64,000 nucleotides of DNA from an uncultured virus (IMG/VR IMGVR_UViG_3300010356_003090) (Duplodnaviria; Heunggongvirae; Uroviricota; Caudoviricetes): the IMG/VR virus record IMGVR_UViG_3300010356_003090. One strand, written 5' to 3'. This document shows, piece after piece, positions 7,026-44,155 of this stretch (position 1 is the first letter of the stretch; every line of letters starts with the position of its first letter). Under the pieces are notes generated by a model, which saw only the letters and a program-made list of their open reading frames with translations, had not been told where the DNA came from and searched no databases. A program made the position numbers and the translations under genes.

Positions 7026-7043
7026 CGAAGGAAGGCTGAGAGG

Positions 7044-7361: not shown

Positions 7362-7374
7362 AGAGGCGGTCAAG

Positions 7375-8388: not shown

Positions 8389-8401
8389 GGAGATCGTAGA
8401 G

Positions 8402-18415: not shown

Positions 18416-18451
18416 TCTCGGCAAATCCGCTCAATTTGGAAGGTCAAAGGC

Positions 18452-20847: not shown

Positions 20848-22719
20848 ATGAATCAGATCTCTTCTCAAAAAATAGCGGCGATCATCGCAAGAGTAAAAGA
20901 AGCACTCCACAAGCGAGGATTGCCCGAAGAATCGATCCATTTTTTTGATGATTCGCCAAATGTTCTACGTTGGCTTGTTCACACCATTGAATTTTTATTC
21001 AAGCCATCCGATGCCATCGCACACACAACCCTTGTAATAACAAGCCCCGAAGGTTCGGAGAAATTGCCTTGTCGTTATATGATTGTGGATGCCAAAAATT
21101 TGATCCCGTCGCATATCCCTACAGATGCAGGATTGCTACAGAAAAATTCAAAGTACCCAGACAATCTACAAGAACGATCCTATGAAGGCGACATCATGGA
21201 GGCAGAGAAGGTGCGCAACAACCTTCGCCAATTCTTCCCTCCACTTGTGATCAATACAAATCCCGACGCGGTGAACGGCCCGCCCGTTGCAGATCGCAAT
21301 CTCGTTGTTTTGGGTGGAAACTCACGCGCAATGACGATGCAGCTAATGTACAAACAGAGTCAACATTCTTCTCGATACAGGGAAATTCAAGCAAAGTATA
21401 TCAGCTATTTGATCGAGCGTTCTCTTGACTTTGGCCTGACAATCGGTGATGTGCTTGCGGTTCAACAACCTATCCTGATCCGCGTCTTGGACTTGGATAC
21501 AATGCGCCGATTCAGCGAAGCGCAACGCCTTGTGAGGCTGCTTAACGAAAGCCTAACGCAAAAGATGTCTTACACGCAGGAATTGACCGCCATTGCGCGA
21601 AGTATCCCGCGTGAAGGATGGAACAAGATCGCCAAAGTGATCGCGCTTACGATGGATGTTGAAGATTCAACATTCAACGAGTATATGCAGACGCCAAAGG
21701 CCACGCCATTGATCGATACCTTGCGTCAATTCGGCGTTTTCAGTCTTCGCAATTTCAGCGTGTACTTTGATCAAGAAAACAAGGCACTCAATCGATTAGG
21801 GCGCTTCTTTGTAAAAGACATCTTGCTTGGCCGCGTCTTCCACAATCACCCCGAACAAATCGCCAAATTAACAGACTCGCAATTTGATCTATTCTCGGAT
21901 CTTGCGCCTTTTTTGATTGCATCGTCTTGTTGCGATCTCAGTTTCGATATTTTAAGCGACTTAATGATCGCCGTTCAAGCCGCCGATTATATGAAGAACG
22001 CCAAGCACACGGAAAACAGACAGCAGGTATTGACTTATCCCTCGTTTGTATCGATCCGCAAGGTCGCACAATTCAATCTGTTTTATCAGATACCACCCGA
22101 ATTTGACGATGCACAAAAGACGGTTAGACGGCGTTTTTTGTGGCAATTGTTCTTTGATATGGGAACAAAGCGGCGCTATTTAATGCGCGGCTTTCAACGC
22201 TATGCCATACGCGCCGCACTACGCGATGAATTGCAAGGTGGACTTGCTCTATCAAGTGAAGAATTGAACATTGAACCAGAAAGCGCAAACAGCACGATTC
22301 TTTGGGCCTTTCAAGCAAAGAGATGGCAACAAGAAACAACCGCAGATGCAGCAGAATTTGAACTTGCGGAACAAAATTTACTCGAAAACGCATCAACGCA
22401 CCAACAAGGCTTGCAAGAAGACAAAAAAACAATCGTTCTCTCGCACAAGGACGGCATCTTGACAATCGAGCGAACAATCCGAGGGAAAAGGCACGTCTTT
22501 TCTTATTTTGATAGCTATACGCAACTTGTTCAAAGTGGACAGGCTTTGACAGTAGACAGCGAGCAAGCAAGAGCGTTGCAACCCGCCACATCTACACATT
22601 CTGCGCAAGGCTTGCGTTTGCTGAATCCCCAAGCAAAGACAAGGCAAGAACGGCTTGCCAACGCGCAAGAATTGCGCTTTGATCCAAGGGCTGCTGCATG
22701 GGAAGTTTCGCGTAGATAG
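20848..22719 (+). CDS. DdrB-like ParB-superfamily domain protein
   Basis: YMIVDAKNLIPSH...YPDNLQERSY...DAVNGPPV...VVLGGNSRAM matches the ddrB-ParB pattern of polyvalent proteins. Confidence 0.75.
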   Translation: MNQISSQKIAAIIARVKEALHKRGLPEESIHFFDDSPNVLRWLVHTIEFLFKPSDAIAHTTLVITSPEGSEKLPCRYMIVDAKNLIPSHIPTDAGLLQKNSKYPDNLQERSYEGDIMEAEKVRNNLRQFFPPLVINTNPDAVNGPPVADRNLVVLGGNSRAMTMQLMYKQSQHSSRYREIQAKYISYLIERSLDFGLTIGDVLAVQQPILIRVLDLDTMRRFSEAQRLVRLLNESLTQKMSYTQELTAIARSIPREGWNKIAKVIALTMDVEDSTFNEYMQTPKATPLIDTLRQFGVFSLRNFSVYFDQENKALNRLGRFFVKDILLGRVFHNHPEQIAKLTDSQFDLFSDLAPFLIASSCCDLSFDILSDLMIAVQAADYMKNAKHTENRQQVLTYPSFVSIRKVAQFNLFYQIPPEFDDAQKTVRRRFLWQLFFDMGTKRRYLMRGFQRYAIRAALRDELQGGLALSSEELNIEPESANSTILWAFQAKRWQQETTADAAEFELAEQNLLENASTHQQGLQEDKKTIVLSHKDGILTIERTIRGKRHVFSYFDSYTQLVQSGQALTVDSEQARALQPATSTHSAQGLRLLNPQAKTRQERLANAQELRFDPRAAAWEVSRR

Positions 22720-22778
22720 CCAAAGTTCTCTACAAGAGGCAAGGAAACGGCATAAGAGGCCACGAAACGGAGAAAGCG

Positions 22779-25049
22779 ATGTATCCCCCAAGTCGAATGA
22801 CACACCCCATCCTAAGCGAAGGAAAGCCGCTTTCTCCTCACATTGGCAGAGGGGGAGATCTCAGACAGCGCAACATTGACGCCCGCCTCGTGTTGGGTCG
22901 CACACCGAACCCTCTTGCGGGCGATCCGCTGTATATCCCCGCTGGTGATGGTCATCGCCACAAATACAATCGTTTGCGCTGGGGCAAAGGGCATCGAAGG
23001 ACACCAAACAAGCCGATAGGACAGCTTGTTGATGTGGCCCGTGCAAAGCTACAAGCGCGGCTTTTGTTGCGGTTTGCTGGACAAGAGGCGTTTGTATTAG
23101 AATCGATCAAAAAACGCGCATTGTCTAAGAAGATCGACGCACTCTTGACGCAAGCGATAAGCGAACATCTGCAACGCGCCGCCCTAGATCTTTTCGACAA
23201 TGCCGACGATATAGGCCGTGTTGGGTGGATCAGCATTGAAGGCGCGTTTTTGAAGTGGATCGACGCAGACGAAGAAGAAGGACAAGCAAGCCAAGTCAAG
23301 GTCAAGAATGAGTACGGCCCGAATAAGTTTGATAGAGCGTCGGTTCGCTCGATCTACTCGTTCTTGTCGAAGGTTGAATCCAGCCGCCCCGAAGATATCG
23401 CACAAGGGATCGTGCTATCAGACAGCGAAGCGCAAAAAGCCTATCACTTTTTGCGCAAGTACCGCAAACAACTCCCCCAAATTGGCATCCAGTTTGATCG
23501 GATTATTCCACCGCTTACCGCCGCCGAAAAGAAAATGCTTGCCGAACAAGGCGAGGATGAAGACAGCGAAAAAGACAGCAAAACCGCAAGCATCGAAGAC
23601 TTGATGAAATTGTCTGTAGGAGAACAAACCCACACTCCAACGCGCAGCAAGCAAGATTCTGTGTACTCCATTCCGCGCCGTATTGCCGAACACAAAGGCA
23701 ATGTACAAGCCCAAATGCAGCTTTTGTACGATGAAGCCTTTTCAAGAATCCATTCGATCATTTCGGGCATTTCGCAGCGTATGCAAGAAAAGGCATCGCT
23801 TACAAACCTTGAAGCAAAGCCAATCGCCCCCGTCCTTTCGTTTATGTATCAATGCCATGAACTGTACTACCTCGGCAACCGTGCCGATATCGCAGCATTG
23901 GCGGAACTACGAGCAGAGAACGAAGATGCCCCTATTCCAAAAGGATACAAGGGCGTTCCAAAAGGATACAAGGGCGTTTTGGGGATCTTGCTCGAACAAA
24001 TGAACGTAGGAACCCCCGCCGATCCCACAAAGAGAATCAAGTACAACGAAAAACAGGGCTATGGCTTGTTTTCGCTAGATGGTGTCTTTGAAAAATACGC
24101 CAACGGAGAGACACGACGCACCCCCGAAGATCTGGACGGACTTAACCCATCCATGCGCGATCTTGACTTGGTAAGCGAACGCTACGCCGCGATCTTGTCG
24201 AACTTCTTGCGCTATGCCCTGATCCTTTTTGATATTGATCACTACGACCAATTAAAGCCTAGCAAGTTTCGCTTGGCGCTCGAAGCCTACAACGCCCAAC
24301 ACCCCGACCAAAAACTCCAGCCCTATCAAGTCCAGATCGATCCAACGCAAATCAGCGGCTTTGTGAAGGATATGATTGAAAAGGCGTTGAAGCATCCAAA
24401 AGTGATCCCATGCGGCGTGATGCAAAACGGCGATCTTCTGCTTTCGCTCACGAAAGACGACAAGGGAAAGCTGCAATATATCCATGTGTACGAGGTGGAT
24501 GCTTCGCTGTCCGATGTCGCGAAAACGGAAAAGTTTATGCGCGAAGTTTATGCCCACAAGATGAGGCGGTTTGCAGAAGGCGATAAATACGCAATGGATT
24601 ATTTTTCAAATCATCTCGTGCAAGGCATCGACATTGGAAGTGTACGGGCTTTCTACTCACATAGTGGCTTGCGTGTTTTATCTCCACAAGGCGATTTGAT
24701 TACAGACAAGGGGGAAGCTGAAAGTTCAAGCCTGATCGGGATGGGCTTGCGTAAAGTCCTTGAATGGACTGCTCAAAAAGACCCGATCCGATTCTTTACC
24801 AACGACGAACAGGCGGTCATCGACACCGATCCCGCGTTTCGCTTGATCCGTGATCGATTCACTCCAAGCAATTTGATCAAAAAACTGCACAATCACGGAT
24901 TCGCAAAGCTGTTTCTCTTCTTGCATAGCCTCGGTGTGCCGCTTATTGGCGACGAATACACGAAAGAACGCGACACGATCCGCAAGGTCGCAGCCAAGAC
25001 CAAAGCCGAAAAAGACGGCAACGAAAGAAGAAATAAATCCAGCGAATAA
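22779..25049 (+). CDS. Large hypothetical protein
   Basis: 756-aa ORF with RBS GGAG; RTPNP in the basic leader; LSDSEAQKAYHFLRKYRKQL motif; 21-bp duplication at 23935-23976. Confidence 0.75.
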   Translation: MYPPSRMTHPILSEGKPLSPHIGRGGDLRQRNIDARLVLGRTPNPLAGDPLYIPAGDGHRHKYNRLRWGKGHRRTPNKPIGQLVDVARAKLQARLLLRFAGQEAFVLESIKKRALSKKIDALLTQAISEHLQRAALDLFDNADDIGRVGWISIEGAFLKWIDADEEEGQASQVKVKNEYGPNKFDRASVRSIYSFLSKVESSRPEDIAQGIVLSDSEAQKAYHFLRKYRKQLPQIGIQFDRIIPPLTAAEKKMLAEQGEDEDSEKDSKTASIEDLMKLSVGEQTHTPTRSKQDSVYSIPRRIAEHKGNVQAQMQLLYDEAFSRIHSIISGISQRMQEKASLTNLEAKPIAPVLSFMYQCHELYYLGNRADIAALAELRAENEDAPIPKGYKGVPKGYKGVLGILLEQMNVGTPADPTKRIKYNEKQGYGLFSLDGVFEKYANGETRRTPEDLDGLNPSMRDLDLVSERYAAILSNFLRYALILFDIDHYDQLKPSKFRLALEAYNAQHPDQKLQPYQVQIDPTQISGFVKDMIEKALKHPKVIPCGVMQNGDLLLSLTKDDKGKLQYIHVYEVDASLSDVAKTEKFMREVYAHKMRRFAEGDKYAMDYFSNHLVQGIDIGSVRAFYSHSGLRVLSPQGDLITDKGEAESSSLIGMGLRKVLEWTAQKDPIRFFTNDEQAVIDTDPAFRLIRDRFTPSNLIKKLHNHGFAKLFLFLHSLGVPLIGDEYTKERDTIRKVAAKTKAEKDGNERRNKSSE

Positions 25050-25079
25050 GCCCGAACATCGGACAAAAGGAGCCTCTTT

Positions 25080-28000
25080 ATGTTCCCACGCCATCCAAGA
25101 TCGCCCTTAAAGATGTTTGCGATGCCACACGCTGATCGCTATCAGCCAAGACGCTACAATCCGCAAAGTTCGCTTGATCTAAGCGTAGATGAAGCGATGA
25201 ACACAACCTCAAGACAGGCAAGCAAGCAAGAGATCCTTGCGCGAAGCATCGAGATCTTGATTGATCGTGTCGCAAGCGAAATGCTCAAAGTCGCGAATGA
25301 TGCGGGTATCAATGCGAAAGTGATGCCGATGATCGCAGATCAAGAAGCCTTCTTGAAAGAAGCCCGCACATTTTGCCAAGCAGAGCCGCGCTATAGCGAA
25401 TTGATCGACCGCTTATCCGCTGAATTGGGCGTTGAATTCTCCTACGGGCTGTCTGGTGAATACCTTGCCTTCTTTGAAGACTTACGAAGCAAGCTAAAAG
25501 AGATCCCGAAAGAAGATATCTCTGCCCGCTTGCGCATGATCAAAGAAGCCATTGCAAGAAACAGGAACCTCAACCTTTCTCAAGCCCTAAACGACCTGCC
25601 CACGGTCTTTTCCATCCGATCCGCCGTCCTTGGTGAAGAAGTCGAAGTTTTGCAATTTTACATTGCGTGGGGTGTGCCAAAAGAAGACTTTGAACACTTC
25701 GCAAACAAACAACAAAACAAGCGCGAGTATGCAGATCGCCAACAAGAGATCAAAGTCTACCAAGAGAACGCAAAAACCATCCTGTCCGAACTCTACGAAA
25801 GCCAAGATGCCGACAACAAGAAGATCATTGACGACGAAATGATCCGCGCTCGTATGCAGATCACGGAAACAGATCGGCGCAACGGTGAGAGTGTAGAAAC
25901 ACTTGCACTCGAAAAACTACTTGCCCAACGTGCGCTTTTGCTTGGTTCTGCACCCGAAAAAGAAAGCAAAAAGAAGGCGACAAAAATTGCTGTTAAGGTA
26001 CAGCAAGAATACCTGCGCAATAAAGCCTACACCTTGAACCATCTGCCCGCCTTCATCGAAGCCGATCTAAAAGATTCGCAGGAAAAACGCTTGCTGTATG
26101 CGCTGCTTGCACCGTATTCTTGCTTTATTGGAAAGATGCGCTGGACGAAAAACACGTTCAACGTGTACACGTTGACTGGTTCTGAAGTGTTGCGCGTGGG
26201 CAATTGGCCGCTTGTTTCTCCGAAGTCGGTTGACGTGTATCACGAAGCACTCGGAGCAGCGTTTGAATCCATCGAATTGACGCGCAAAAACCTTGCGCGA
26301 TACAACGCCGATATCATCCCATCATCCCCACCACTTCGACGACAAGAGCAGCTTATGATCAGCCTGTTGACAGCGGCAAACGCTCGACAGCATCAACGAA
26401 GCCTTGCCTCTGCCCGCAACCTCGAATTGTCGGATCAAGTGGACGTAGAATTGAGCGAAACGGAATGGATGGATCGGCTTGGTGGCTTGGTTGATCCGAG
26501 ACCGTGGCAGCTTGCAGCAACCGAAGTCGCAGCAAACAACCCTCGTGTGTTTTTGGCTGACCCAACAGGTTTCGGAAAAACAGGACAAGCCTTGTTGATC
26601 CTTGAGCGGAACCTTGCTTATCCAGCGGTGATCGTCTGCCCACCTGGGGTCTTTCAAAATTGGGCCGCCGCTGTCAAGCAATGGCTGCCGCACCGATCCG
26701 TCTCGCTTCTTGAGGGGGGCATGGCGCAAAGCCTGACAGTCGGGGGGAAAACACTCAAAGCCTCCGATGTGTGGAAGGCATACGACCAACAAGAAACAAA
26801 CAGAGGCGGAAGCCTTGCATCTTTCATCTCCTCCCTACCTTCCGAGATGAAGCCCAAATTTGTAACCGTGTCGGTTGAAAAGGCGCAAAGAGACTCTTCC
26901 CGCCGTGAATTCGACAAAGCGGAGATACCCATTGATCGATATGATGTGGACATTGTGATCGTATCCAAAGACTCGCTAAAAATCGACGTTGGGCGGGGCT
27001 TGGAGGGGAGATTGATCCCACCGATCCTAAGTCGAGTCAACAAGGGGTTTGTGTTCGATGAATCGCACTATTTGAAGAACCGACGCACGGCTACTTACCA
27101 AGCCGCGAAGGTCGTTGCCTCCCAAGCAAGCACACGGCTTTTGTTGAGCGCAACCATCCTAACCAACAATGCCGAAGAATTGAGAAACCAACTGGACATT
27201 CTGGGGCAGCTTTACGACTTCTTTGGATCGCCGCAAGAATTTTATGAAGCCTTTGAATCGTTGAAGGGCGGGGGTATGCGTGGGGGCGTCACAAGCAATC
27301 TTTCCGAGGCAAACATTGCAAAGTCGGAGAAGGTGAACGAGATCTTGCGCCGTTGTTGCTATGTGCGCCGATTCCCCGAACAATTGCAAGCAATGGGCGC
27401 GATGCCCAAGCCACACCGCCAAACCCTGCCCGTCTTGCTCGATCATGCGTGGGCCGATGCCTACGAGGGAAGTATCAAGGATTTCAAAGATGCGGTGCTT
27501 GAATACTCCGCAGGGATCGCACAAATGATCTTTTCGGGTATCTTGCAAATTGCCTCCGATGTGATGAGACAGATCTTGACAACACGCGACCTATCCGAAC
27601 TCAAAGGGCAGTTTGAAAGACTCCTTGATTATGCCCAAGGCAAGGGAAAAAACACCAAAGACTACAAAGGGCAAAGCGCCGAAGAGGTTAAGCTGATCGC
27701 CTATCATAAAGCCGTGGACGCGGAGATCAGAAGCACTCTTACACACAGCATTGACCGCGCAATGATCGAGATCGAGCGGGTGGGTAGAACCATCACCGAG
27801 CGATTGAACGCGAAACTTGCAGAGCGGAATGAAGAATTTTCCGAATTGATGGAACTGGAAAGCGAAGACAGCGACGAAGACAGCGACGAAGACAAAGAAG
27901 CGGCCAAGGCAAAGGCCAAGGCAAAGGCCGAAGCCAAGGCGAAAGCCGAAGAAGAGAAGCGGCCCGAACTTACATCCTCCCAAAAGAAGCTATTTCAAAG

Positions 28001-29318
28001 CTGCTTTTATACGTTCTTTGATCTTGCGATGGACGGCTATCTAGCCGATCAATCGGGAGAATACAAGAAGGTCTTGGAAGCAGACATCGACTTTGGCGGG
28101 GATGTTCGCCTATTGATCGACGCTTTCGCTAAGCGGATCGCACAATCTCGCCTACAGAGCGCCACACTCACGCGGATCTTGAAACTTCGCCAACTGACAT
28201 CCCTTGCAAAAGCCCCGTATGCGTCGGCTTTATTGCTCAACCTGTTACATCGGGTATCGCTTGCGCCGTTGTCGTACAACAACGAAAAGACCAAACAAGA
28301 AGCGTTGAAGCGTTCGCAGTATCCGATAACAGAGAAAGACGGAAGACTCTACGAGCAACGACCGACCAAGATTGTGTTCTTTACGCTCTTTGATACAACC
28401 TTGCGCTATGTTGCCGATGTATTGGAAAAAAACGGCGTCAATTATGTGCGCATCACGGGCAAGAACACGAAGCCCCAAAAAGCCGCCGCACAAGTCGCGT
28501 TTGCGTCTGATCCAGACGTGCGCGTGTGCTTGTGTAGCATCGGAGCCGCAAGGGAAGGCTTAAACCTCCAAGTATCCGATCAAGCGATCTTTACAGATAC
28601 AGCGTACACCGCCGCCGCAACAGAACAAGCCGAGGGGAGAATCAAGCGTCTTGGTAGCCCATTTACCGACGTTTTTATGACCTACTTTGTCATCCCCGAC
28701 ACCGTGGACACCCTGATCACCGCGCTAATGGAGCGAAAGCGCGAATTGATGCTTGGTACACAAGAAGGCGTTCGCTCGATCAAGCGCCGATTTACTCCGC
28801 TTGAGCATGGGACGTTTGCCTTGCGCTACGATCTCAAAGTCGATGGCGGGCGCGTCGATCCATTCAGCCTAGAAACCAAAGGGCCGCTCGATCTGCACAA
28901 AAAATTAGAGATATGGGATCATCTCGGATACTACACGGAAATTGGGAAACAAGCCCTTGAGCATTGGAAGGCAACAGGCACAACCGACGAAGTGATCGGC
29001 GTGTTGAAAAAGTGGGATGATCTGCTTGCGCCTATCTCCGAAAAGATCAAGCGCGAAGCCGAAAGCAAGAGAATCCAAACCCACGGAACTAGCCTAGAAA
29101 GCCTTGACGAAGACGAAGAAGCCCAAGAAGCATCCGAACAAGAGAACTCCGAAGAAGCGTTAATGGATTCGATCCTGTCCACAATCTCAGACCTTCCCAC
29201 GCTTCACATTACAGAAAATGAGCATCTTTCGGCTTTACGCGCAATCTACGACTTCAAGAATGTGAGAAGCCTTTTTACGAAACAAGAAACGCTGCAAAAG
29301 ATCGGATTCTACGACTAA
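25080..29318 (+). CDS. SNF2-family (SF2) helicase/translocase with long N-terminal extension and inter-lobe insertion
   Basis: PRPWQ, LADPTGFGKT, VIVCP, FDESH, LLSAT, AAREGLNLQ, QAEGRIKRLG. Confidence 0.9.
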   Translation: MFPRHPRSPLKMFAMPHADRYQPRRYNPQSSLDLSVDEAMNTTSRQASKQEILARSIEILIDRVASEMLKVANDAGINAKVMPMIADQEAFLKEARTFCQAEPRYSELIDRLSAELGVEFSYGLSGEYLAFFEDLRSKLKEIPKEDISARLRMIKEAIARNRNLNLSQALNDLPTVFSIRSAVLGEEVEVLQFYIAWGVPKEDFEHFANKQQNKREYADRQQEIKVYQENAKTILSELYESQDADNKKIIDDEMIRARMQITETDRRNGESVETLALEKLLAQRALLLGSAPEKESKKKATKIAVKVQQEYLRNKAYTLNHLPAFIEADLKDSQEKRLLYALLAPYSCFIGKMRWTKNTFNVYTLTGSEVLRVGNWPLVSPKSVDVYHEALGAAFESIELTRKNLARYNADIIPSSPPLRRQEQLMISLLTAANARQHQRSLASARNLELSDQVDVELSETEWMDRLGGLVDPRPWQLAATEVAANNPRVFLADPTGFGKTGQALLILERNLAYPAVIVCPPGVFQNWAAAVKQWLPHRSVSLLEGGMAQSLTVGGKTLKASDVWKAYDQQETNRGGSLASFISSLPSEMKPKFVTVSVEKAQRDSSRREFDKAEIPIDRYDVDIVIVSKDSLKIDVGRGLEGRLIPPILSRVNKGFVFDESHYLKNRRTATYQAAKVVASQASTRLLLSATILTNNAEELRNQLDILGQLYDFFGSPQEFYEAFESLKGGGMRGGVTSNLSEANIAKSEKVNEILRRCCYVRRFPEQLQAMGAMPKPHRQTLPVLLDHAWADAYEGSIKDFKDAVLEYSAGIAQMIFSGILQIASDVMRQILTTRDLSELKGQFERLLDYAQGKGKNTKDYKGQSAEEVKLIAYHKAVDAEIRSTLTHSIDRAMIEIERVGRTITERLNAKLAERNEEFSELMELESEDSDEDSDEDKEAAKAKAKAKAEAKAKAEEEKRPELTSSQKKLFQSCFYTFFDLAMDGYLADQSGEYKKVLEADIDFGGDVRLLIDAFAKRIAQSRLQSATLTRILKLRQLTSLAKAPYASALLLNLLHRVSLAPLSYNNEKTKQEALKRSQYPITEKDGRLYEQRPTKIVFFTLFDTTLRYVADVLEKNGVNYVRITGKNTKPQKAAAQVAFASDPDVRVCLCSIGAAREGLNLQVSDQAIFTDTAYTAAATEQAEGRIKRLGSPFTDVFMTYFVIPDTVDTLITALMERKRELMLGTQEGVRSIKRRFTPLEHGTFALRYDLKVDGGRVDPFSLETKGPLDLHKKLEIWDHLGYYTEIGKQALEHWKATGTTDEVIGVLKKWDDLLAPISEKIKREAESKRIQTHGTSLESLDEDEEAQEASEQENSEEALMDSILSTISDLPTLHITENEHLSALRAIYDFKNVRSLFTKQETLQKIGFYD

Positions 29319-29352
29319 AACAGCGCAGCAAAACCAAAAGAAAGACACAACC

Positions 29353-29751
29353 ATGTCAGCTCGACACATGAACCCACCCGACGTTACGCCGATCACAATG
29401 CGCGACTTGGAGCAAGGAGAGAACGTCTTGCGCGTCTTGCAGACGGCACTTCTGTTTGGAGAATTGGACTTGAACCAAGTCTTATCCGAATTTCGCGAGG
29501 AATTCCCCAGAATGGATATCGGCTTTGTCCAAGTCGCGATCCAACTTGCAAGCGCAGGACACTTGATCGCGGCATTCCATCTGGTGAAACGGCAAGAAGC
29601 AAATGAAGCGCGGCGCTATCGTATGGAAATTGGAGCCGCGATGGGCTTGGGCCTTGATGAAATTCTTGCGTTCTTGTCGGACTTTGCGAAGCGAAGCCTA
29701 ACCGCGATGCGCCGCCGCCTTGAGGCGGACTTCCCAAAGTCCACTTTTTAA
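29353..29751 (+). CDS. Hypothetical protein (RHMNP N-terminus)
   Basis: Operonic ORF starting MSARHMNPP. Confidence 0.7.
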   Translation: MSARHMNPPDVTPITMRDLEQGENVLRVLQTALLFGELDLNQVLSEFREEFPRMDIGFVQVAIQLASAGHLIAAFHLVKRQEANEARRYRMEIGAAMGLGLDEILAFLSDFAKRSLTAMRRRLEADFPKSTF

Positions 29752-29783
29752 CCGAACCACTCAACCCACAAGGAGGGGTGAAC

Positions 29784-30335
29784 ATGCAACCCACCGAGAT
29801 CGCCCCATCCCACATCCCACCAGACCAAGCATCCACAGAAGCAAGCGGAGGCGCAATTCGAACGCTTAACGTGGAGATCCCGACCTCCCCCCTTCATCTC
29901 CCCACAAACGCGCAAGGAAGCGCAAGCGAGGACGGAATGAAAAGCCCTATTTCCGATGGCTCCCTAGAGACAATCAAAGAAAAGGTACAATTCGGGATCT
30001 TGCGGGGCGTTGCGGGCTGGACAGCAACACTCTTTCCTGTCTTGGCAGGAGTGGCCGTTTTTATGGTGTGGCTTTTCAGCCTCGCACCGAAAAGCCACGT
30101 TGATCAACAAAACACCAAGATCGAGCAAAAGATCCAAGCGTTATCGAAAGAGATCAAAGAGCAACAATCCGCACTCAAGAACGAACTAAAGGAGATGTTG
30201 AACGAGAAATTCGGGCTTGTCTGGAAAAACCTTGGAAAGATGGAGGAGCGGATCGACAAACTGCGCGATAGGATGAGCGCGAGCGAAGAGACGCCAAAGC
30301 CCAAGAAGCAAAAGAGGCCATCCCAAGGGGAATAG
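29784..30335 (+). CDS. Single-TM coiled-coil protein
   Basis: RBS AGGAGG; hydrophobic segment followed by a heptad-rich region. Confidence 0.7.
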   Translation: MQPTEIAPSHIPPDQASTEASGGAIRTLNVEIPTSPLHLPTNAQGSASEDGMKSPISDGSLETIKEKVQFGILRGVAGWTATLFPVLAGVAVFMVWLFSLAPKSHVDQQNTKIEQKIQALSKEIKEQQSALKNELKEMLNEKFGLVWKNLGKMEERIDKLRDRMSASEETPKPKKQKRPSQGE

Positions 30336-30346
30336 AGGTTGACACC

Positions 30347-31588: not shown

Positions 31589-31785
31589 CGCACTACCGCT
31601 TTTTGCAGAGAAGGGCAAACATCGACATTGATCAAGCGGTGGTCGATATCTACCCACCCACAGACGGCAAAGCCTTTGATGTTGGCGAGCAAGAGACCGA
31701 GATCTTTGTCAAGAGTCTGCAATTTTCGCCTACGCCGCACGGAATGAAGCTAATTGCGTTGGCTTACAGGATGGAGCGTGTTTAA
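31585..31785 (+). CDS. Small hypothetical protein
   Basis: TTGA overlap upstream and TAATG overlap downstream. Confidence 0.5.
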   Translation: MTHYRFLQRRANIDIDQAVVDIYPPTDGKAFDVGEQETEIFVKSLQFSPTPHGMKLIALAYRMERV

Positions 31786-32999: not shown

Positions 33000-33007
33000 G
33001 AAAAGCA

Positions 33008-34082: not shown

Positions 34083-34092
34083 AGGAAAAGCC

Positions 34093-36516: not shown

Positions 36517-36528
36517 GGATTATCCGTC

Positions 36529-38058
36529 ATGTTGGACAGGGAAACAGAGGAAAGGTATCTATCAAGATCACTCGATAGAGCAGAACGAAAACTGAACAAA
36601 GAGATCGACCAACAAACCGCGCTAAGCGACGAACAAATCAAGACGTTGCGCGATGAATTGAAGAACAACACCGCTGGTCTTTACGATGCGATGATCGATG
36701 ATTCTTCGTCTGATTACCCCTATAACGTGATGATTCGAGAGATTCGCGGGCGCTTACACGAAGAGATCAACAAGCTGCAATCATCGAGATCTAGCGATCC
36801 GCTGGATTCTTTGTCGTTGGATATCTTGTCTATACCGATACCAACCACTCCATCCAAAGCACCCACCGCGCCGAAGTCTTCCATCCCATCGACGCTCGAA
36901 GCAGATGCCGCATTTCTTGAACTTGCCGATCTTGTCGCATCAAGCAAAGTCAAGCAACTCGCCAAGATCGGAGATTGGCTTTTAAATTGTCCAGCTTATC
37001 GATCAGGCAACTACAAAAACTGGATGGCGCGGTGGTCAACCTCGACAGGGAAAGCGATAGAATTTTACAACGATCCAAAGCGAGCCAAAGCCCCCGAAAA
37101 AGTGGAATCAAGAAAACTAGAAGACAAATACGGAGATCCCGTAAAATACGACGCATACTATCAAATTCCAGACAATAACCTGAGAATTGGGAGTGTGGTG
37201 CAGTTTGCCTCAGATAGCTATCGGGGCGACGATAAGGTTAGAATATACGGTGTGTTTCTCGGCATGACACCGAGCCGCTTTGAACCGAGCGACCCCAAAG
37301 AGGACGCGGGATCGTTTCTGTATATTCATCTTAGCGTAAACAAGGACTTTGGGGGTAAATGGGATGCTGCTGCAAAAGCAGCGGAAAAACTTGCGCAACA
37401 AATCAAGAGTCTATTCGACAAGCAAACGCTCTTAGCAAACCCCTATCTAGGGCTTCTTGCGCCGATCCCTGACACAAACAGCCCGTTGTTGCATGAAGAT
37501 CTGGGATACCGTGTCGAATCTCTTGCAAGCGTTCCCTTTTGGGAATACGCCAAGAACCGCAAGAAACGGATGGAGGAGGCCGCGAAAGCGGCAAGCGAAA
37601 GCAGCGAGGAGCGAACCACAAACCCCAAGCGACGGCTTGGGTATTGGACAGATACGCGGTTTCCATATCTCCCCCTCGAATACATCAACGCGCTGGAGCC
37701 TCTTGCAAGGGCTTTGGGCGTTTCAGAAGTCGCAAGAGGGGTGTCACCTTCTGGACGTGGAGATCGTGGCTTTTTGGTGGCTTTCCGTGACGCAGACGGC
37801 AAGCCGTCAAATTTGGACGATATCTCTATCCAAGACGGCAAGCAAGAAGGCTATTGGATCAACAAGCGCGAAGACTTCAACACCCGACACCTTGCGCAGA
37901 TCCGCAAGAACAAACGCCCCTTGTGGACAACTTGGAAGGGGCAAGCGATCCCAACACGTCAACACCTTGCGCTTGCAATGTGGGCCTATTCCCCCGAAGC
38001 AAGGCGGCTTGAGCGATGGGTTGAACAAAACGAATCCTTTTTAGAATCGCTTGAATAA
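36529..38058 (+). CDS. Multidomain hypothetical protein
   Basis: A distinct C-terminal domain begins after RTTNP: GVSEVARG...W..KR..F..RH...PTRQHLALAMWAYSP. Confidence 0.75.
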   Translation: MLDRETEERYLSRSLDRAERKLNKEIDQQTALSDEQIKTLRDELKNNTAGLYDAMIDDSSSDYPYNVMIREIRGRLHEEINKLQSSRSSDPLDSLSLDILSIPIPTTPSKAPTAPKSSIPSTLEADAAFLELADLVASSKVKQLAKIGDWLLNCPAYRSGNYKNWMARWSTSTGKAIEFYNDPKRAKAPEKVESRKLEDKYGDPVKYDAYYQIPDNNLRIGSVVQFASDSYRGDDKVRIYGVFLGMTPSRFEPSDPKEDAGSFLYIHLSVNKDFGGKWDAAAKAAEKLAQQIKSLFDKQTLLANPYLGLLAPIPDTNSPLLHEDLGYRVESLASVPFWEYAKNRKKRMEEAAKAASESSEERTTNPKRRLGYWTDTRFPYLPLEYINALEPLARALGVSEVARGVSPSGRGDRGFLVAFRDADGKPSNLDDISIQDGKQEGYWINKREDFNTRHLAQIRKNKRPLWTTWKGQAIPTRQHLALAMWAYSPEARRLERWVEQNESFLESLE

Positions 38059-38071
38059 GGGGGGGGATACA

Positions 38072-39160
38072 ATGGATTACAAAAAAGATCTCTACTCGCT
38101 ACTGCGAAACCTTCAAAAGCTGCAAAGCTGGTATGTTGTAACCCTCAAAAAGCAAGCCGAAGAAGCAGACAGGGAAAGCGCATTGCTTGCGCATGAATTT
38201 GTAGGTACATCAAAACAAATGTCTCCCGAACGCGCCAAGTGGAAAGCAACCGAACATCATAAGATCGGATACTTAGAGCAATTGTTTGTTTGTCAATTCT
38301 TTCACAAGCATTTCTTTAACAACCAATTCCCATTCCAAGAAATACGGAATTGGAAAAAAAAGGACACGCCAACTGCTACATCTATCGCTCAAGCCTTCAA
38401 AACACAAAACTTTTCCGCCTATGACTTCGCATTACCGACTTTTTGGACGTTTGTTCTTGCGGAAAGAATTGCAGGGATTGACAGCGTTGGAAATATCGCC
38501 AACATTGCGCCTTTTTTTGAACTTGAAAAAACAAAAAAAACAAAATCAAATCCCGTCCAAAAATATCAAATTCGCTTTTTTCTGCGATTCGCAATAAAGA
38601 AAAAAACAACGGGATTTATAGCCCAACACTTCCCCGAACGAACAAAAGAATTGTGCCATCCGATCACCACAAAGGAAGCAGACGGCCTAGAATTCCTATT
38701 GAAAGTGATCGCCAATTTTTCGGATATTCTGGATGTTTATCACTTGCCAGATCAAGCGTTCTCGCTGCATGAAGATTTCTTATTTGAAATGGTTCACGCT
38801 ATCAAAAACAGCAACACAAAAACGCGGCCCTTTATGCAGATCTTTGAAACAGAGAAGCGTGAACTTGCGATTGGTACTGTCTCAGCAGAAGCCTTGCGCC
38901 GCTCCATGATCAAGGCCATCGGCAAAAGAAAAGGAAAAGCCCTTCGCTTTGAGGATGCAGGAAACCTATTGAATCAGGGAGATCCAGACGCCGTAGAGAT
39001 CTCCGAGAAGGGACACGCTTTGCTTGACACACAATTGGATCTGTTGCGCAGAATGGCAAAACGCGCCATAACAGCAGAGATCGGAGATCGACCCATCAGC
39101 AACAAGATCGCCTTTGGTGAAATCGATCCCGAACTGCAACAGATCCTCTCTCAAAGATAG
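38072..39160 (+). CDS. Hypothetical protein, intact paralog of 33008-34082
   Basis: G-rich RBS before ATG 38072; shared LF..QF...FF and DFL..(L/M)V motifs. Confidence 0.75.
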   Translation: MDYKKDLYSLLRNLQKLQSWYVVTLKKQAEEADRESALLAHEFVGTSKQMSPERAKWKATEHHKIGYLEQLFVCQFFHKHFFNNQFPFQEIRNWKKKDTPTATSIAQAFKTQNFSAYDFALPTFWTFVLAERIAGIDSVGNIANIAPFFELEKTKKTKSNPVQKYQIRFFLRFAIKKKTTGFIAQHFPERTKELCHPITTKEADGLEFLLKVIANFSDILDVYHLPDQAFSLHEDFLFEMVHAIKNSNTKTRPFMQIFETEKRELAIGTVSAEALRRSMIKAIGKRKGKALRFEDAGNLLNQGDPDAVEISEKGHALLDTQLDLLRRMAKRAITAEIGDRPISNKIAFGEIDPELQQILSQR

Positions 39161-39168
39161 GAGATCCG

Positions 39169-39618
39169 ATGCCTACAACCATCACCCCACAAGAAAACAA
39201 ACGCGGCATCAACCAAAGCGAAGCCTTGTTCTATATCTATCGGAATCTCCGAACGGGCGGCTTTTCCGTGCAGCGTAGGGGGATTGTTGTGGATCGCTTG
39301 CGATCAGACGAGTGCATATTGCTCTACAACGTCAAGCCACATATTCGACAAGCTGGCAGAGAGCGGGCGCAACGCGAAAAGCAGCGCAATGTTCACGCCT
39401 TTCTTTGCTGCGAGCGATACACTATCCTCTCAGATCCGCTAACAAAAGCAGAAGAAAGCGGCTTGCGCGTCGTTTCTTATGCACCTTTCGATGATCGGGC
39501 GTGGCACTACAAAGACACAAGCGAAGCCTTCAAAGGGGCGGGCTTTTGCGTTCTGGCAAAAAATCGCGTGTTTGCCTTGCCTTCTGGATCGGTGTTTCTT
39601 GTTCCGAACTCACCTTGA
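39169..39618 (+). CDS. Widespread phage hypothetical protein (YxNL...AGRxR...NVHA family)
   Basis: IYRNLRTGGFSV...RQAGRERAQREKQRNVHAFL; RBS AGGAG. Confidence 0.75.
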   Translation: MPTTITPQENKRGINQSEALFYIYRNLRTGGFSVQRRGIVVDRLRSDECILLYNVKPHIRQAGRERAQREKQRNVHAFLCCERYTILSDPLTKAEESGLRVVSYAPFDDRAWHYKDTSEAFKGAGFCVLAKNRVFALPSGSVFLVPNSP

Positions 39619-39644
39619 ATTCAACCACCAAAGGAGATCGCCCC

Positions 39645-40118
39645 ATGCAACGACAAATTCGCCCCTCCCTTGTGTTTGATCTCGATCAAACCCTTGTCAA
39701 TCTACACGAACAAGCCCGCCCACCGTTGGCAGAAAGCAGACAGATCGGACAAGGGCTTTGGTTGTCAAAACGCCCCTATCTACGGCGTACACTCAGCTAT
39801 CTAAGCCAATTTTACGATCTCTTTATCCTGTCTGCGGGCTCCCAAGGATGGGTGAACCAAGCCGTTGCAACCTTCCAACTGGACGGCTTGTTTCAAGCCG
39901 CTCTTAGCGTGGACGCAGTGGATCGCCTATCACTTCGCGGGCCGTGGGTATTGATCGACGATCTGCCCTTTGAGCATCCCAACACACAGCGCAAACTTCG
40001 CATCCTTGGGGACGTGTCGCGCTATCGGATGATTCAAGCCCCTCCGTTTCTTGGCGATCCAAACGATGCTTTCTTGTCGAATGTTGCAAGAGTCTTCTTG
40101 GATAATTTGAACCGATAA
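39645..40118 (+). CDS. HAD-superfamily NIF/FCP1-like phosphatase
   Basis: LVFDLDQTLV, KRPYL, ILSAG, VLIDD; RBS AGGAG. Confidence 0.8.
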   Translation: MQRQIRPSLVFDLDQTLVNLHEQARPPLAESRQIGQGLWLSKRPYLRRTLSYLSQFYDLFILSAGSQGWVNQAVATFQLDGLFQAALSVDAVDRLSLRGPWVLIDDLPFEHPNTQRKLRILGDVSRYRMIQAPPFLGDPNDAFLSNVARVFLDNLNR

Positions 40119-40132
40119 AAAAGAGGCCCATA

Positions 40133-40840
40133 ATGGCAAAGAAGCGCAAAAAGAACAGAAGCAAGACCAAGGACTTTTTTGACGAATACGGCGGGTTGAT
40201 CATGCTTGGGCTTGGTGGGGCCGCAATTATCGCTGTCGCAACAAGCGCAACAAGCGCCTACGCATACAGCGAAGACAACGAACCAACGGACGTTTTTGAC
40301 TTTTTCGGTGATGGTGGATCGTGGGATCTTGGAGAAGTCACCAAGCCCGTTGAAGTCTCCCCCAAGACCGCACAGGAAGCCCCCGCCGTTGCAAAAAGCG
40401 GAACCAACAAGGGCGCGGATCTTGTGGAGTCTGCAAAGACGTTGATCGGCACAGAATACGGCCCCGACGTTGGCGGCCCAACAAGAGCGGGCTTTGAGAA
40501 GTACCTTGACTGCTCAGGCACAATCTTTCAAGCAGCGCGAAGATTGGGCATCACGATACCGCGCAACGCAACGGGGCAATACCTACGCGCAAAAGCGTTT
40601 CGTATGTTGGACGAAGAGACCGCCAAAAACACGGCGGGCGCGTTGGTCTTCTTCCACAAGCCCAACACCGAGGGCGTAAGTGCTTTTCACGTTGAATTGT
40701 CCCTTGGAGATGGCCGCGTTTTGCACAATCATCAACCAGATACACGAGTCGAAATCAGCAAGTGGGGCTGGTGGCGCAACTGGATCAAACGCAAAGGTTA
40801 TACTGTCAGCTTTGGCGTATTGCCCGAATTTGCAGCATAA
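40133..40840 (+). CDS. Membrane-anchored NlpC/P60 peptidoglycan hydrolase
   Basis: AKTLIGTEY, LDCSG, IPRNATGQY, GALVFF, FHVELSLGDGRVLH; basic N-terminus plus TM. Confidence 0.88.
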   Translation: MAKKRKKNRSKTKDFFDEYGGLIMLGLGGAAIIAVATSATSAYAYSEDNEPTDVFDFFGDGGSWDLGEVTKPVEVSPKTAQEAPAVAKSGTNKGADLVESAKTLIGTEYGPDVGGPTRAGFEKYLDCSGTIFQAARRLGITIPRNATGQYLRAKAFRMLDEETAKNTAGALVFFHKPNTEGVSAFHVELSLGDGRVLHNHQPDTRVEISKWGWWRNWIKRKGYTVSFGVLPEFAA

Positions 40841-40855
40841 AGGAAAAAAAACATC

Positions 40856-42337
40856 GTGTCAAATAGCAATCAAAAATTGACGCAAACAGGCATCACGCCC
40901 TTGATCGACGTGGCGGGATTAGGCAATGAAAGACGGGTGATCGATCCCGACTTGGTGAATGAAAAAGGCGAACGCATCGCGCCAAACAACATCTCTGTGA
41001 GCGACGGCTTCCACGTTGCGAGCATCGACACAAACCCGCTTTCTCCGACGTTCGGGACGTTTAGCGTACAGAATCGCTTGTCTGTCGCTGCACAATGCCG
41101 CTGGCAAGCCCAACACATCCACTCTGTCCAGCGTCCTACAAATCAAGCAACATCCGCAACTTTTGGCCCCATCGGTGGCGCGGTATTGCCTCCCTTGCCG
41201 TTTGGCGGTGGTTCGGGATCGTACAACGACACACTCTTTCCTCGCTATGGCAATCCGATCCCCGTGGCGACGTTGCAAGCAGCCCTTGACGCCAACAAGA
41301 AGGCGATCCGCACACTTGTTTTTCGTCCAAACCTCCCCACATCGACCCCCCCCGCTCCAAACACCTTTACCAATTGGGCGGATCTCTATGCCGCATATCA
41401 AGCCCAAGCCAACGCGGGCGCGTGTCAAATTGTCTTTGAAGCAGAACGCCCCATCTCTGCCCCGATCACGATTCCTGCGGGTGTGTGGGAATTTAAATAC
41501 GGGGACTCGTTCACAGGCCCATCACTCGGCCCCCAAATTCCCGTGATCTTGGTGGATGGCTGTCAAATCAAAAACGTCTTTCTCTTTGATAACGGATTGA
41601 TGCTTGTTGGGCAAACGACGGGCGCACCGCAGCTTGTGTGGGATTCGCTTTTGGGAACGGGTGCGCCAACGGTTCCAATTTTCCAAAACGCCGCCGTTAT
41701 CCGCAACGATGGCAGCGCACCTATGATCGTTTGGGATCAAGACGCCGCAACCGACTTTCTGGGGATCGGCCTTGGCTTCGCATCGCGTTTTGACGATAGC
41801 ACCTTTGAAATCCTTGAACTGCAAGATCCCGGTGGTGGCGGGTTTGCGGTGATGCAATTTTTCATGCAAGGCGGGGGGGCTTACATTGGCCCAAACACAA
41901 TCCGAGGGGCTGGAAACGTCGGGTATCGCGTGGAATTGAACGCGCAAGGCGTCAATGTTTCACTCGAACAAACCAATTATGCGGGCCTCCCTGTCACTCC
42001 TCCCGACACCTTCGCGCAACGCGCACACCGACGCTTGATCTTGACCGAGTCGCTTGACAATGGAGCCACGCCAACACTCGAACCTTCGCAATTTGCGCGT
42101 ATTGCGCCAAGCGTGGACGGTGGAGCGCCGATTGTGATCACGTTGCCACGCGCTGAATTCTTCCCTTCGATCATTTGTGGAGGAAAGAAGATCAACGGTG
42201 ACGTGAACACTCCTGTTTCGTTTATCCCACAAGGTGCAGAAACCATCGAAGGAGCGTTTGTGTATGCCCTTCCCTTGGGCGCTTATGAAGGGGTGCAATT
42301 CTTCTCAGACGGGGCAAATTGGTTTGTTCTGCCATAA
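40856..42337 (+). CDS. Spike/fibre-like protein A
   Basis: P/G/T-rich. C-terminal ITLP...ETIEG...Y..V...SDGANW module typical of phage fibres. First 116 aa are shared with the next gene. Confidence 0.65.
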   Translation: MSNSNQKLTQTGITPLIDVAGLGNERRVIDPDLVNEKGERIAPNNISVSDGFHVASIDTNPLSPTFGTFSVQNRLSVAAQCRWQAQHIHSVQRPTNQATSATFGPIGGAVLPPLPFGGGSGSYNDTLFPRYGNPIPVATLQAALDANKKAIRTLVFRPNLPTSTPPAPNTFTNWADLYAAYQAQANAGACQIVFEAERPISAPITIPAGVWEFKYGDSFTGPSLGPQIPVILVDGCQIKNVFLFDNGLMLVGQTTGAPQLVWDSLLGTGAPTVPIFQNAAVIRNDGSAPMIVWDQDAATDFLGIGLGFASRFDDSTFEILELQDPGGGGFAVMQFFMQGGGAYIGPNTIRGAGNVGYRVELNAQGVNVSLEQTNYAGLPVTPPDTFAQRAHRRLILTESLDNGATPTLEPSQFARIAPSVDGGAPIVITLPRAEFFPSIICGGKKINGDVNTPVSFIPQGAETIEGAFVYALPLGAYEGVQFFSDGANWFVLP

Positions 42338-42713
42338 CCCATAAAGCGTAAAGAAAGAAAAAACCATGTCCAACAGCCCCCAAAAACTGACACAAACAGG
42401 CATCACGCCGTTGATCGACGTGGCGGGATCGGGCAACGAAAGACGGGTGATTGACCCCGAGTTGGTGAACGAAAAGGGCGAACGCATCGCGCCAAACAAC
42501 ATTTCTGTGAGCGATGGCTTCCATGTTGCAAGCATCGACACAAACCCGCTTTCCCCTACGTTCGGGACGTTTAGCGTACAGAATCGCTTGTCTGTCCCTG
42601 CGCGATGTCGTTGGCAAGCGCAACGCATCCACTCCGTCCAACGACCCACAAACCAAGCAGAATCCGCAACCTTTGGCCCCATCGGTGGCGCGGTCTTGCC
42701 TCCCTTGCCGTTT
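40856..42713 (+). repeat. ~348-bp dispersed direct repeat (40856-41203 and 42366-42713)
   Basis: Near-identical coding starts; 7 aa differences in 116. Confidence 0.92.
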
Positions 42714-43553
42714 GTTGGTGGCGGTGGCGGTGAAGTGAACACCGCGTCAAATGTGGGGATCGGGACAGGGATCTTTGACGCAAAGGTCGGAACGGACTTG
42801 CAATTCAAGAGCCTTCTTGCGGGCGCGGGGATCGCGTTGGCGGATCTCGGAGACGAGATCCAGATCACGAACGCGGGCGGTGGCTACACGGGGCCACAAA
42901 CACCGCTCACAACGGGCGCTTTTGCTTACTATCCACTTCAGGAAGGCCAAGGCGCTATCACCATCACCGACGCAATCGGCGGACGCAATCTCACAGGCTC
43001 AACACTCAACATTATCTCGCGACACCCGCTCTTTCCAGCGCGTACCATGTTGCGCTTTTCGGGCGGCAACTTTACAAGCCCCATCGATCCGCTTTGGGGT
43101 TCCGTCGATCAAACCTTTGAAGTGATTGTATGGCCCGCAAACACGGGCGTTGGTCAACTTTGGTTCACACAAAACGGCATTGCGACAACGGGCGCTTGTC
43201 AATGGGATGGGGGTGCTGGTCGGTATGCCTTCTCTTGGAATGGCCTTGCGGCATTATCAACCCCCGCAAACTACTATTTCGGCGGAAAAGACGGAACACT
43301 TGCACCCGAAATGCGCCCTTACCTTTTGCGCGTGGAGCGCGAAAATATCGCAGGAACGATCAACGTGCGTGTGTACGTCAACGGATATCTACACAGCACG
43401 TTGACAACGGCGGTTGTCCCCCCCCTTGCAGATCGCTTGATCCTTGGGAACGCTTGCCCCGTTTTTATGTCCGATATGATCGTCTGGCAAACCGCGAATC
43501 CTCCCGTATCGGCCCTTGCGCAAGCGCAGCGTGTACTTCCCTATCTGTTCTGA
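42366..43553 (+). CDS. Spike/fibre-like protein B with LamG/concanavalin-like C-domain
   Basis: GEVNTASNVG...LQFKSL fibre module; AYYPLQEGQG...D, VRVYVNG. Confidence 0.65.
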   Translation: MSNSPQKLTQTGITPLIDVAGSGNERRVIDPELVNEKGERIAPNNISVSDGFHVASIDTNPLSPTFGTFSVQNRLSVPARCRWQAQRIHSVQRPTNQAESATFGPIGGAVLPPLPFVGGGGGEVNTASNVGIGTGIFDAKVGTDLQFKSLLAGAGIALADLGDEIQITNAGGGYTGPQTPLTTGAFAYYPLQEGQGAITITDAIGGRNLTGSTLNIISRHPLFPARTMLRFSGGNFTSPIDPLWGSVDQTFEVIVWPANTGVGQLWFTQNGIATTGACQWDGGAGRYAFSWNGLAALSTPANYYFGGKDGTLAPEMRPYLLRVERENIAGTINVRVYVNGYLHSTLTTAVVPPLADRLILGNACPVFMSDMIVWQTANPPVSALAQAQRVLPYLF

Positions 43554-43585
43554 GAATCCTTCAAACCAACGCGGAGATCACCCCA

Positions 43586-44155
43586 TTGAAGCGCAAAGCA
43601 ACAGACCCCCTAGAAATCGCTTACAAGCGAGGATTGAAGGAATACCAAGCCTCCCCTATAGGCAAGGGTAGATCTTCGCAAAATTGGGGCATCTCTCGCG
43701 CTTACACGCTGGCGAAGAAAAGCGACGGCTCCAAAGACAAAGACCTCTTTGACGCGATCCCCGATCCAACCCCGCCAAGACTCCACACCCAAGCGATCTC
43801 GCTCGACACCGTGACAACGTGGGTTTCACAGATCAATGATGCGATGATTGACGCGGGCCTTGCGCCTTTGCGATTGGAGGTTTGCGGCCTTGCAGACAAA
43901 GACAACAAGCAAGATCCGCGTGTTTTTGCCCACACAAACCACAAAGACCGCGTGATCTGTGTCTCGAAAGCATGGCTACACCTGCCTATTGACCATGCGT
44001 TCGGCGTGTTGGTGCATGAAGCGGGACACGAGGCCGCGTTTCAAGCATGGGATAACTACGACGAAGAGGCCGCAGACGTGGCTTGTTTGGAATTGTTGGG
44101 GTGGGAGATTCGATACAAACCGCCGTCTTTGCTACAGATTGCCAAAAGACGCTAG
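43586..44155 (+). CDS. Zincin-like metallopeptidase with small N-terminal domain
   Basis: TTG 43586 with GGAG 9 nt upstream; HEAGH followed by EEAAD; N-domain AYKRG...QNWGISRA...KDKDL. Confidence 0.7.
   Translation: MKRKATDPLEIAYKRGLKEYQASPIGKGRSSQNWGISRAYTLAKKSDGSKDKDLFDAIPDPTPPRLHTQAISLDTVTTWVSQINDAMIDAGLAPLRLEVCGLADKDNKQDPRVFAHTNHKDRVICVSKAWLHLPIDHAFGVLVHEAGHEAAFQAWDNYDEEAADVACLELLGWEIRYKPPSLLQIAKRR

Follow-up and report, generated by a model that had tools for sequence, protein, structure and literature searches.

Most descriptions of injected anti-defense proteins come from tailed phages that package through a portal and from conjugative elements. DdrB of phage P1 is processed and packaged, solo DdrB-ParB genes typically adjoin virion genes, and in proteins of the DarB type the methyltransferase is joined through its C-terminus to an SF2 helicase while LPD36 lies at the N-terminus (PMC5512222). 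The first 30 residues of DarB are enough to bring a reporter into the heads of P1 (PMC9024508). The locus analyzed here belongs to an uncultured virus, IMG/VR record IMGVR_UViG_3300010356_003090 (71,577 bp), bases 1 to 64000 of which are the window. Positions 20848 to 44155 of the window hold 19 genes, including those for a DdrB-like ParB protein, an SNF2-type ATPase, an N6-adenine methyltransferase, and a zinc protease (zincin), and several proteins of this region contain a five-residue motif, RxxNP (the tag). A preliminary description had proposed that the four enzymes are a P1 Dar system split into separate genes. The reading favored here, which has roughly an even chance of being correct, is that the region is a variable enzyme array behind the capsid genes whose tagged members are loaded into the particle through the basic-Asn-Pro motif of the core protein. 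The genes that bear on this reading are as follows (aa, amino acids; pI, isoelectric point).

9859..10887, + strand: Lys/Arg-rich predicted core (DNA-packing) protein, pI 10.7, with RAPNP, LLVNP, and KRKNN motifs
11069..11887, + strand: coding for the predicted single jelly-roll major capsid protein (structure model and fold matches)
16121..19045, + strand: two upstream tagged proteins, one of 764 aa with four tags between small modules and one of 197 aa with two tags
20848..22719, + strand: DdrB-like ParB protein (domain at aa 44-253) without a peptidase domain; C-terminal RLLNP at 22615-22629
22779..25049, + strand: 756-aa protein of no known family (none at E ≤ 0.001); N-terminal RTPNP (22899-22913)
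25080..29318, + strand: SNF2-type ATPase, 1412 aa; N-terminal RRYNP at 25149-25163
29353..29751, + strand: 132-aa protein of no known family; RHMNP at aa 4-8 if translation starts at the upstream ATG
34093..36516, + strand: N6-adenine methyltransferase, 807 aa (catalytic part at aa ~617-807), untagged here
36529..38058, + strand: 509-aa protein in which RTTNP (37612-37626) opens a ~140-aa module
40856..43553, + strand: two spike candidates, a role inferred from position and composition
43586..44155, + strand: minigluzincin/Wss1-like zinc protease, 189 aa, the last gene of the block

Profile, motif, and fold evidence agreed with the preliminary description that the four domains are real. First, the ParB protein matched the Pfam family ddrB-ParB (PF18763) at aa 71 to 214 (E value, 4.8e-11; 43.3 bits versus a cut-off of 27.6) and was 25% identical to P1 DdrB aa 13 to 201 (E value, 5.6e-9), the similarity stopping at aa 253. 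Its GGNSR motif, containing the conserved catalytic arginine, was invariant in nine out of nine aligned sequences, and no HExxH peptidase was found in the protein. Close relatives of the protein include fusions with LPD1, InPase, ART, and methyltransferase domains. Second, the SNF2 protein contained the Pfam domains SNF2-rel_dom (E value, 2.3e-14) and Helicase_C (E value, 3.8e-8) with PTGFGKT and DESH motifs, and its best PHROG match was PHROG 62 (E value, 5e-59). Third, the methyltransferase showed FFPTP, EPSAG, and NPPF motifs, placing it by its TP and NPP(Y/F) motifs in the gamma class of N6 enzymes, and had PHROG matches with E values down to 1e-39, mostly to long profiles. Its first ~600 aa, already singled out in the preliminary description as of no known family, gave no family match at E ≤ 0.05, and the atlas likewise offered neither a family nor a fold; among 1.84 billion representatives, five non-self relatives were found, one of them spurious (an SprB-repeat protein). 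Finally, the zincin combined HEAGH in the HExxH helix and a downstream Glu as the third ligand with a zincin fold (model pLDDT, 82.8). Its fold matches were abylysin (probability, 1.00), selecase (0.97), and Wss1 (0.85), the best E value being 7.5e-3 and none reaching E ≤ 0.001. Proabylysin was also the top, weak match of its profile among solved structures (E value, 0.1), and its N-terminus (43586-43720) matched DUF5824 weakly, below the cut-off (E value, 0.014). Among the families that the preliminary description had listed, ddrB-ParB, SNF2, and methyltransferase families were matched; MPTase-PolyVal and LPD-type Pfam rows were absent at E ≤ 1 among the proteins scanned.

Two candidate assignments were rejected: a zincin start at 43130, which overlaps the spike gene at 42366-43553 in a different frame, and PADLOC hits as defense genes, which reflect generic similarity among helicases and methyltransferases. 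Separately, among the sequencing runs containing the virus, which are labeled activated sludge and wastewater metagenome, one contig of run X5 omits 645 bp of the ParB gene (21611-22255; 215 codons, in frame), sparing the ParB domain and the C-terminal tag, with short similar sequences at the flanks of the deletion. Another ParB protein, P0047, is a single chain fusing LPD1, ddrB-ParB, and a RecA-type ATPase.

A home-made gene caller found 70 genes. Those between 5204 and 44155 are all on the + strand (34 out of 34), forming a co-oriented block of ~39 kb, and within 20848 to 44155 the intergenic gaps are at most 59 bp. The primase and helicase genes (57813-60631) are on the opposite strand, so the co-orientation of the enzymes away from the replication genes was correctly described. 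Their placement between the capsid and spike candidates holds for ParB, SNF2, and the methyltransferase, whereas the zincin gene follows both spike candidates. As also described, domains typical of polyvalent proteins are encoded as separate genes: there is one recognizable enzyme per gene rather than several effector domains per chain. Fused multidomain chains exist in the relatives P0083, G002, and G003. Readthrough or an altered code that would fuse neighboring genes into polyvalent proteins was considered and rejected, because in-frame neighbors (8 out of 33 pairs) are at the chance level, all three stop codons are in use, and most genes are served by a ribosome site of their own; the methyltransferase gene and the gene at 36529 are in frame across a TAA. 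Promoter and terminator scans gave signals no better than those of shuffled sequences.

The tag is concentrated in the virion block. Compared to 1,000 shuffles, RxxNP was found 11 times versus 1.6 expected in the block and 5 times versus 0.9 expected in the 19 genes of the studied region (P = 0.004), and it was found 0 times versus 0.9 expected in the remaining 36 genes. The pattern was picked on this same sequence, which makes the shuffle P values after the fact, and one of the five occurrences in the studied region (RYGNP, in the spike candidate at 40856) may be due to chance. Tags are located near the N-terminus of the proteins at 22779, 25080, and 29353, near the C-terminus of that at 20848, and at joints in those at 16121 and 36529.

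Three tests of the tag are independent of the choice of motif, namely, the ParB homologs, the P0083 fusion, and the module strings of G002 and G003. First, RL[LF]NP is present near the C-terminus in four out of four close ParB homologs (49 to 56% identity), amid gapped flanking sequence; in the four homologs that come next in the alignment, the chain stops before the tag position. Second, P0083 consists of this methyltransferase, then KRTPNPKKR, and then a module 66% identical to aa 361 to 509 of the 36529 protein, and this tag-opened module exists alone in G018 and G020. Third, proteins of G002 (642 aa, six tags) and G003 (729 aa, three tags) are strings of small, tag-separated modules with the same zincin at the end. 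The probable origin of the motif is seen one gene before the capsid gene. Capsid homologs identified 13 JGI loci beyond the same virus, which covered up to 10 kb on either side of the capsid locus, and 31 loci in IMG/VR, where the contigs reached 179 kb. From 28 records, 22 relatives were compared, all distant (capsid identity of about 25%), three of them without the last 0.1 to 5 kb, and one, G011, with its capsid gene missed by the caller. In many of these relatives the slot before the capsid gene is occupied by basic proteins with RRNP or RRN repeats, and the LLxVNP start of the relatives' basic proteins is also present in the 9859 protein. The core protein is therefore the likely source of the tag.

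Several observations weigh against loading by the tag. Only two of the four named enzymes are tagged here; the preliminary description, which had called some of them RxxNP tagged, was right for ParB and SNF2 and not for the methyltransferase and the zincin. About half of the 19 genes are untagged. Among all 42 ParB homologs, RxxNP was found 8 times versus 3.9 expected, half of these coming from the four close ones. The SNF2 homologs, found in 7 of the 22 relatives, are without RxxNP and vary in place and strand. The capsid blocks of 21 distant relatives showed no enrichment of RxxNP and have other motif forms or none, and the RRN and NRR forms were enriched in only some relatives. Proteins with at least three tags numbered 4 versus 1.9 expected among 4,092, and the methyltransferase fusion P0083 has no genomic context.

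An alternative is that the region is a landing zone, in which accessory genes use the transcription of the operon and act in the cell without being packaged, the tag being a recombination relic or a tail that binds DNA. The GC content of many block genes is lower (0.42 to 0.46 versus 0.50 to 0.55), one island appears to be deletable, most block genes are without a homolog in the 22 relatives, and the same zone of the relatives carries glycosyltransferases, integrases, and transposases. However, a relic would not persist in four out of four homologs at ~50% identity, the tag is missing from all 36 genes outside the block, and DdrB-ParB genes are linked to virion genes in other phages (PMC5512222). 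This explanation is unlikely.

It is also conceivable that the enzymes handle the virus's own nucleoprotein, with the zincin cutting the core protein at its tags, SNF2 stripping the core after entry, and ParB organizing the released circle. Wss1/SprT proteases remove proteins from DNA, and the zincin fold resembles minigluzincins and Wss1/SprT proteases; the zincin is present in 16 of the 23 genomes, G002 and G003 have it joined to tagged modules, and the motif abounds in the core protein. SNF2 and ParB, however, are not family-wide, although every member would need uncoating, and the transglutaminase-like protein found in 20 of the 22 relatives is just as good a candidate for the protease. 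Such a division of labor is quite improbable as the explanation of the region.

The last alternative is the original one, a single injected anti-restriction system in which P1 DarB and DdrB are split into genes. The ParB protein is a true DdrB homolog, the domain set corresponds to the commonest domains of polyvalent proteins (PMC5512222), and P0056 fuses ParB to this type of methyltransferase. However, when the 70 proteins were compared with six P1 proteins, the ParB-DdrB match was the one meaningful match. SNF2 matched DarB only at an E value of 0.01 over 80 aa, the methyltransferase had no hit to DarB at E ≤ 0.05, and DarA, DdrA, Hdf, and Ulx had no credible match; a 29-aa Hdf hit (E value, 0.009) lies outside the block, and the short hits outside the region, two in all, appear to be chance matches. 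The zincin resembles the DdrB peptidase in the HExxH helix only (18 columns; probability, 12%). The SNF2 and methyltransferase genes are 4.8 kb and seven genes apart, with the helicase first, and a strain contig deletes the methyltransferase island. Nor do the genes travel together: among the 22 relatives, profiles detected the zincin in 15, SNF2 in 7, this methyltransferase type in only 2, and ParB in none, and the genes showed no shared linkage. The methyltransferases of the two relatives are short and far from the capsid gene, and the zincin gene is on the opposite strand and 27 to 80 kb away in 13 of the 15 relatives that have it, often (11 of 15 inspected) beside GLG-motif or membrane proteins. 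A single split system is very unlikely, and by sequence comparison the region is not a P1 Dar system cut into pieces.

Starting from the observed domains, their co-orientation, the excess of tags, their conservation in close homologs, and their position at termini and module joints, the favored reading of tag-loaded cargo would work as follows. The block genes would be expressed late, from the virion operon. Since no conserved packaging ATPase was seen in the family, the arginine-rich core protein probably condenses the genome, and any protein carrying the core motif would be enclosed with it. Tagged ParB and SNF2 would then arrive DNA bound and act before viral gene expression. ParB may be a DNA-bound nuclease or NTPase, activities proposed for the ddrB-ParB family (PMC5512222), and SNF2 may be a translocase that either frees the incoming genome of proteins or escorts it. 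The methyltransferase, tag-joined in P0083, would be an optional accessory that probably marks viral DNA against restriction, and the zincin would be a family-wide protease, likely trimming or stripping tagged proteins. By analogy, the array may work like phage internal head proteins, such as those of P1 Dar and T4, without being a P1 Dar member. A broader version, in which packing is protamine-like, the five-residue motif recruits any enzyme and serves as a cut site of a conserved Wss1-like zincin, a virion-borne kit of protease, SNF2, ParB, and methyltransferase unpacks and shields the genome at entry, and the tagged proteins of no known family are new anti-defense effectors of a large undescribed family of tailless bacterial viruses, is doubtful and offered only tentatively.

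The type of virus was assessed from the capsid protein and from the packaging genes. The 11069 product models as a beta-sandwich (pLDDT, 64.5) whose best fold match is SPV1 6oj0 (Foldseek E value, 5.7e-3; probability, 0.91; Z score, 6.1; root mean square deviation, 3.7; 129 residues aligned). The next match is HHIV-2 (Z score, 5.9), the best Z scores are nearly tied among SPV1 and other jelly rolls, and the nearest atlas clusters of the protein are viral. No terminase, portal, HK97 capsid, tail module, or packaging ATPase was matched in 56 Pfam and 59 PHROG scans, in which the only tail-labeled rows were those of the NlpC/P60 domain. The biggest clusters of P-loop proteins among the 23 genomes resemble replication proteins, and none contains this genome. 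Together, the moderate jelly-roll match and the lack of terminase, portal, and HK97 capsid matches make a single jelly-roll capsid and a tailless virus likely; that the virus is tailless had been held in the preliminary description. Two points weigh on the other side: the fold match is moderate (Z score under 8, and no Foldseek hit at E ≤ 0.001), and a degenerate packaging ATPase could escape the motif scan. The genome is likely circular because a Pro/Gln repeat protein continues from the contig end (G000:C1 69318-71577) to the contig start (window positions 1-426); an exact terminal repeat was looked for at the ends of the 71,577-bp contig and none was found.

The other features of the block are as follows.

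5204..5887, + strand: transglutaminase-like protein, candidate maturation protease, upstream of the studied region (Transglut_core, E value of 6e-4; homologs in 20 of the 22 relatives)
29784..30335, + strand: membrane-anchored coiled-coil protein, untagged
30347..31588, + strand: 413-aa protein of no known family with an N-terminal KNNP, interrupted by the strain deletion
30894..36318, no strand: AT-richer island of 5,425 bp with a 9-bp direct repeat at its two ends; its larger genes have a GC content of 0.42 to 0.44
31585..34082, + strand: four untagged genes (66, 404, 235, and 130 aa) of no known family, within the island
38072..40118, + strand: 362-aa protein (internal KSNP), L5 gp82-like protein, and FCP1-like HAD phosphatase
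40133..40840, + strand: NlpC/P60 cell-wall peptidase (Pfam E value, 1.4e-9) with a basic N-terminus and a predicted membrane anchor

A contig of run X4 joins position 30893 to 36319 across the 9-bp direct repeat at a depth of 12.6, with 115 letters on the short side, and run X6 contains a piece starting at the same base as the X4 joint. The deletion takes 742 of the 807 methyltransferase codons and the four untagged genes, three of them AT rich, and it cuts the gene at 30347. Low cover of 31028 to 35675 in runs X4 to X6 was not counted as evidence, and only the joining contig was used. Four runs marked as possible RNA are probably DNA and comprise contigs only. This one contig skips the island, and the methyltransferase island is therefore likely dispensable.

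The NlpC/P60 peptidase is the likely entry enzyme. The spike candidates gave only a weak match to PRD1 P5 (E value, 0.36). They have ~115 N-terminal residues in common, and an X4 contig that links 41202 with 42787, its shorter side having 34 letters, suggests spike swapping. Two further motif patterns were seen. First, G-L-G-type motifs occur in upstream virion proteins (5910-9070 and 12050-12928), and GLG is among the most enriched motifs in G018, G019, G020, and G028; two motif systems may coexist in the genome. Second, the proteins at 13797, 14426, and 40133 begin with a stretch of basic residues that ends in Asn (KRKKNE, KRKKNR), and a predicted membrane helix comes next; this is possibly a membrane-protein form of the tag.

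Outside the block, a RadA/Sms-like ATPase is encoded right before it, at 531-1715 (TIGR00416; E value, 5e-80). Two genes, at 3591-4592 and 46647-47762, encode FGE-sulfatase domains. Diversity-generating retroelements often employ this fold; the scans showed no match to a reverse transcriptase. An MT-A70 methyltransferase (46072-46650), a tyrosine integrase (54068-55093), and a PriCT-2/Toprim primase with a DUF3987 helicase (57813-60631) were also found, and the integrase gene suggests a temperate lifestyle.

The relatives share a recurrent order of coiled-coil protein, transglutaminase-like protein, small conserved genes, very basic protein, and capsid gene. No close relative with genomic context was found in viral_contigs with the capsid, ParB, two close alignments, and one distant three-sequence alignment. 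An ENA contig of 24,008 bp is recorded for both P0058 (a capsid relative) and P0019 (a tagged ParB), an agreement in length only. Glycosyltransferase genes lie downstream of the capsid gene, on its strand, in G002, G003, G006, G008, G023, and G025. Between the core and capsid genes of two loci is an open reading frame (L011:9309-9926 and G026:14456-15127) that we take, from its motif, to be LAGLIDADG-like; the capsid reading frame that follows is shortened, and an intron in the capsid gene is possible. In G012 (L124:7443-11233), PcfJ and SprT-like proteins are encoded a few kilobases behind the capsid gene, and the PcfJ protein terminates in an arginine-serine tail opened by PNRR, a mirror form of the tag. 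No description of the virus family or of the RxxNP tag was found in the literature searched, which left most subscription journals out of reach.

If the motif loads proteins, it would provide a sequence rule for recognizing effectors that act early, in a family whose genomes reach ~180 kb, and RxxNP could be a portable loading signal. At least six tagged proteins of no known family would then be ranked candidates for an anti-defense role. The same domain types as in the described systems are found here in a likely single jelly-roll virus without a recognizable packaging motor, where the motif would predict the cargo.

Comparison with known systems places the region as follows. P1 Dar is similar in its DdrB-like ParB, in having genes for an SF2 ATPase and an N6-methyltransferase alongside virion genes, and in the short peptide signal that loads DarB (PMC9024508). 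It differs in that here there is no DarB orthology or fusion, ParB is without the DdrB peptidase, and DarA, DdrA, Hdf, and Ulx gave no credible match. Moreover, the P1 Dar proteins have no consensus signal (PMC9024508), whereas here one motif recurs, and P1 is tailed and packages through a portal, whereas this virus is likely tailless. Polyvalent proteins (Iyer et al. 2017; PMC5512222) share the same domain vocabulary, and solo DdrB-ParB genes beside virion genes are already described in that paper. Here, however, the genes are separate, modules are joined by a basic-Asn-Pro motif, and no LPD or MPTase-PolyVal match was obtained at E ≤ 1, and most of the described phage cases have a portal-terminase system. 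In T4, a short portable capsid-targeting sequence likewise loads unrelated proteins into the head (PMC9024508), but the T4 signal is N-terminal, whereas RxxNP can lie near either terminus, at joints within a protein, or in repeats. The nearest capsid folds are those of the group of SPV1 (Portogloboviridae), HHIV-2, SH1, and P23-77. The circular genome of SPV1 is condensed as a nucleoprotein, without a packaging ATPase. This virus differs from that group in its bacterial-type genes (NlpC/P60, integrase), in genomes of ~70 to 180 kb, in a fold match that is only moderate, and in an arginine-rich tagged core protein with a large enzyme cargo. Virion-borne ParB, helicase, and methyltransferase domains are therefore already known; what differs is the likely tailless carrier and the core motif shared by, and marking, the modules.

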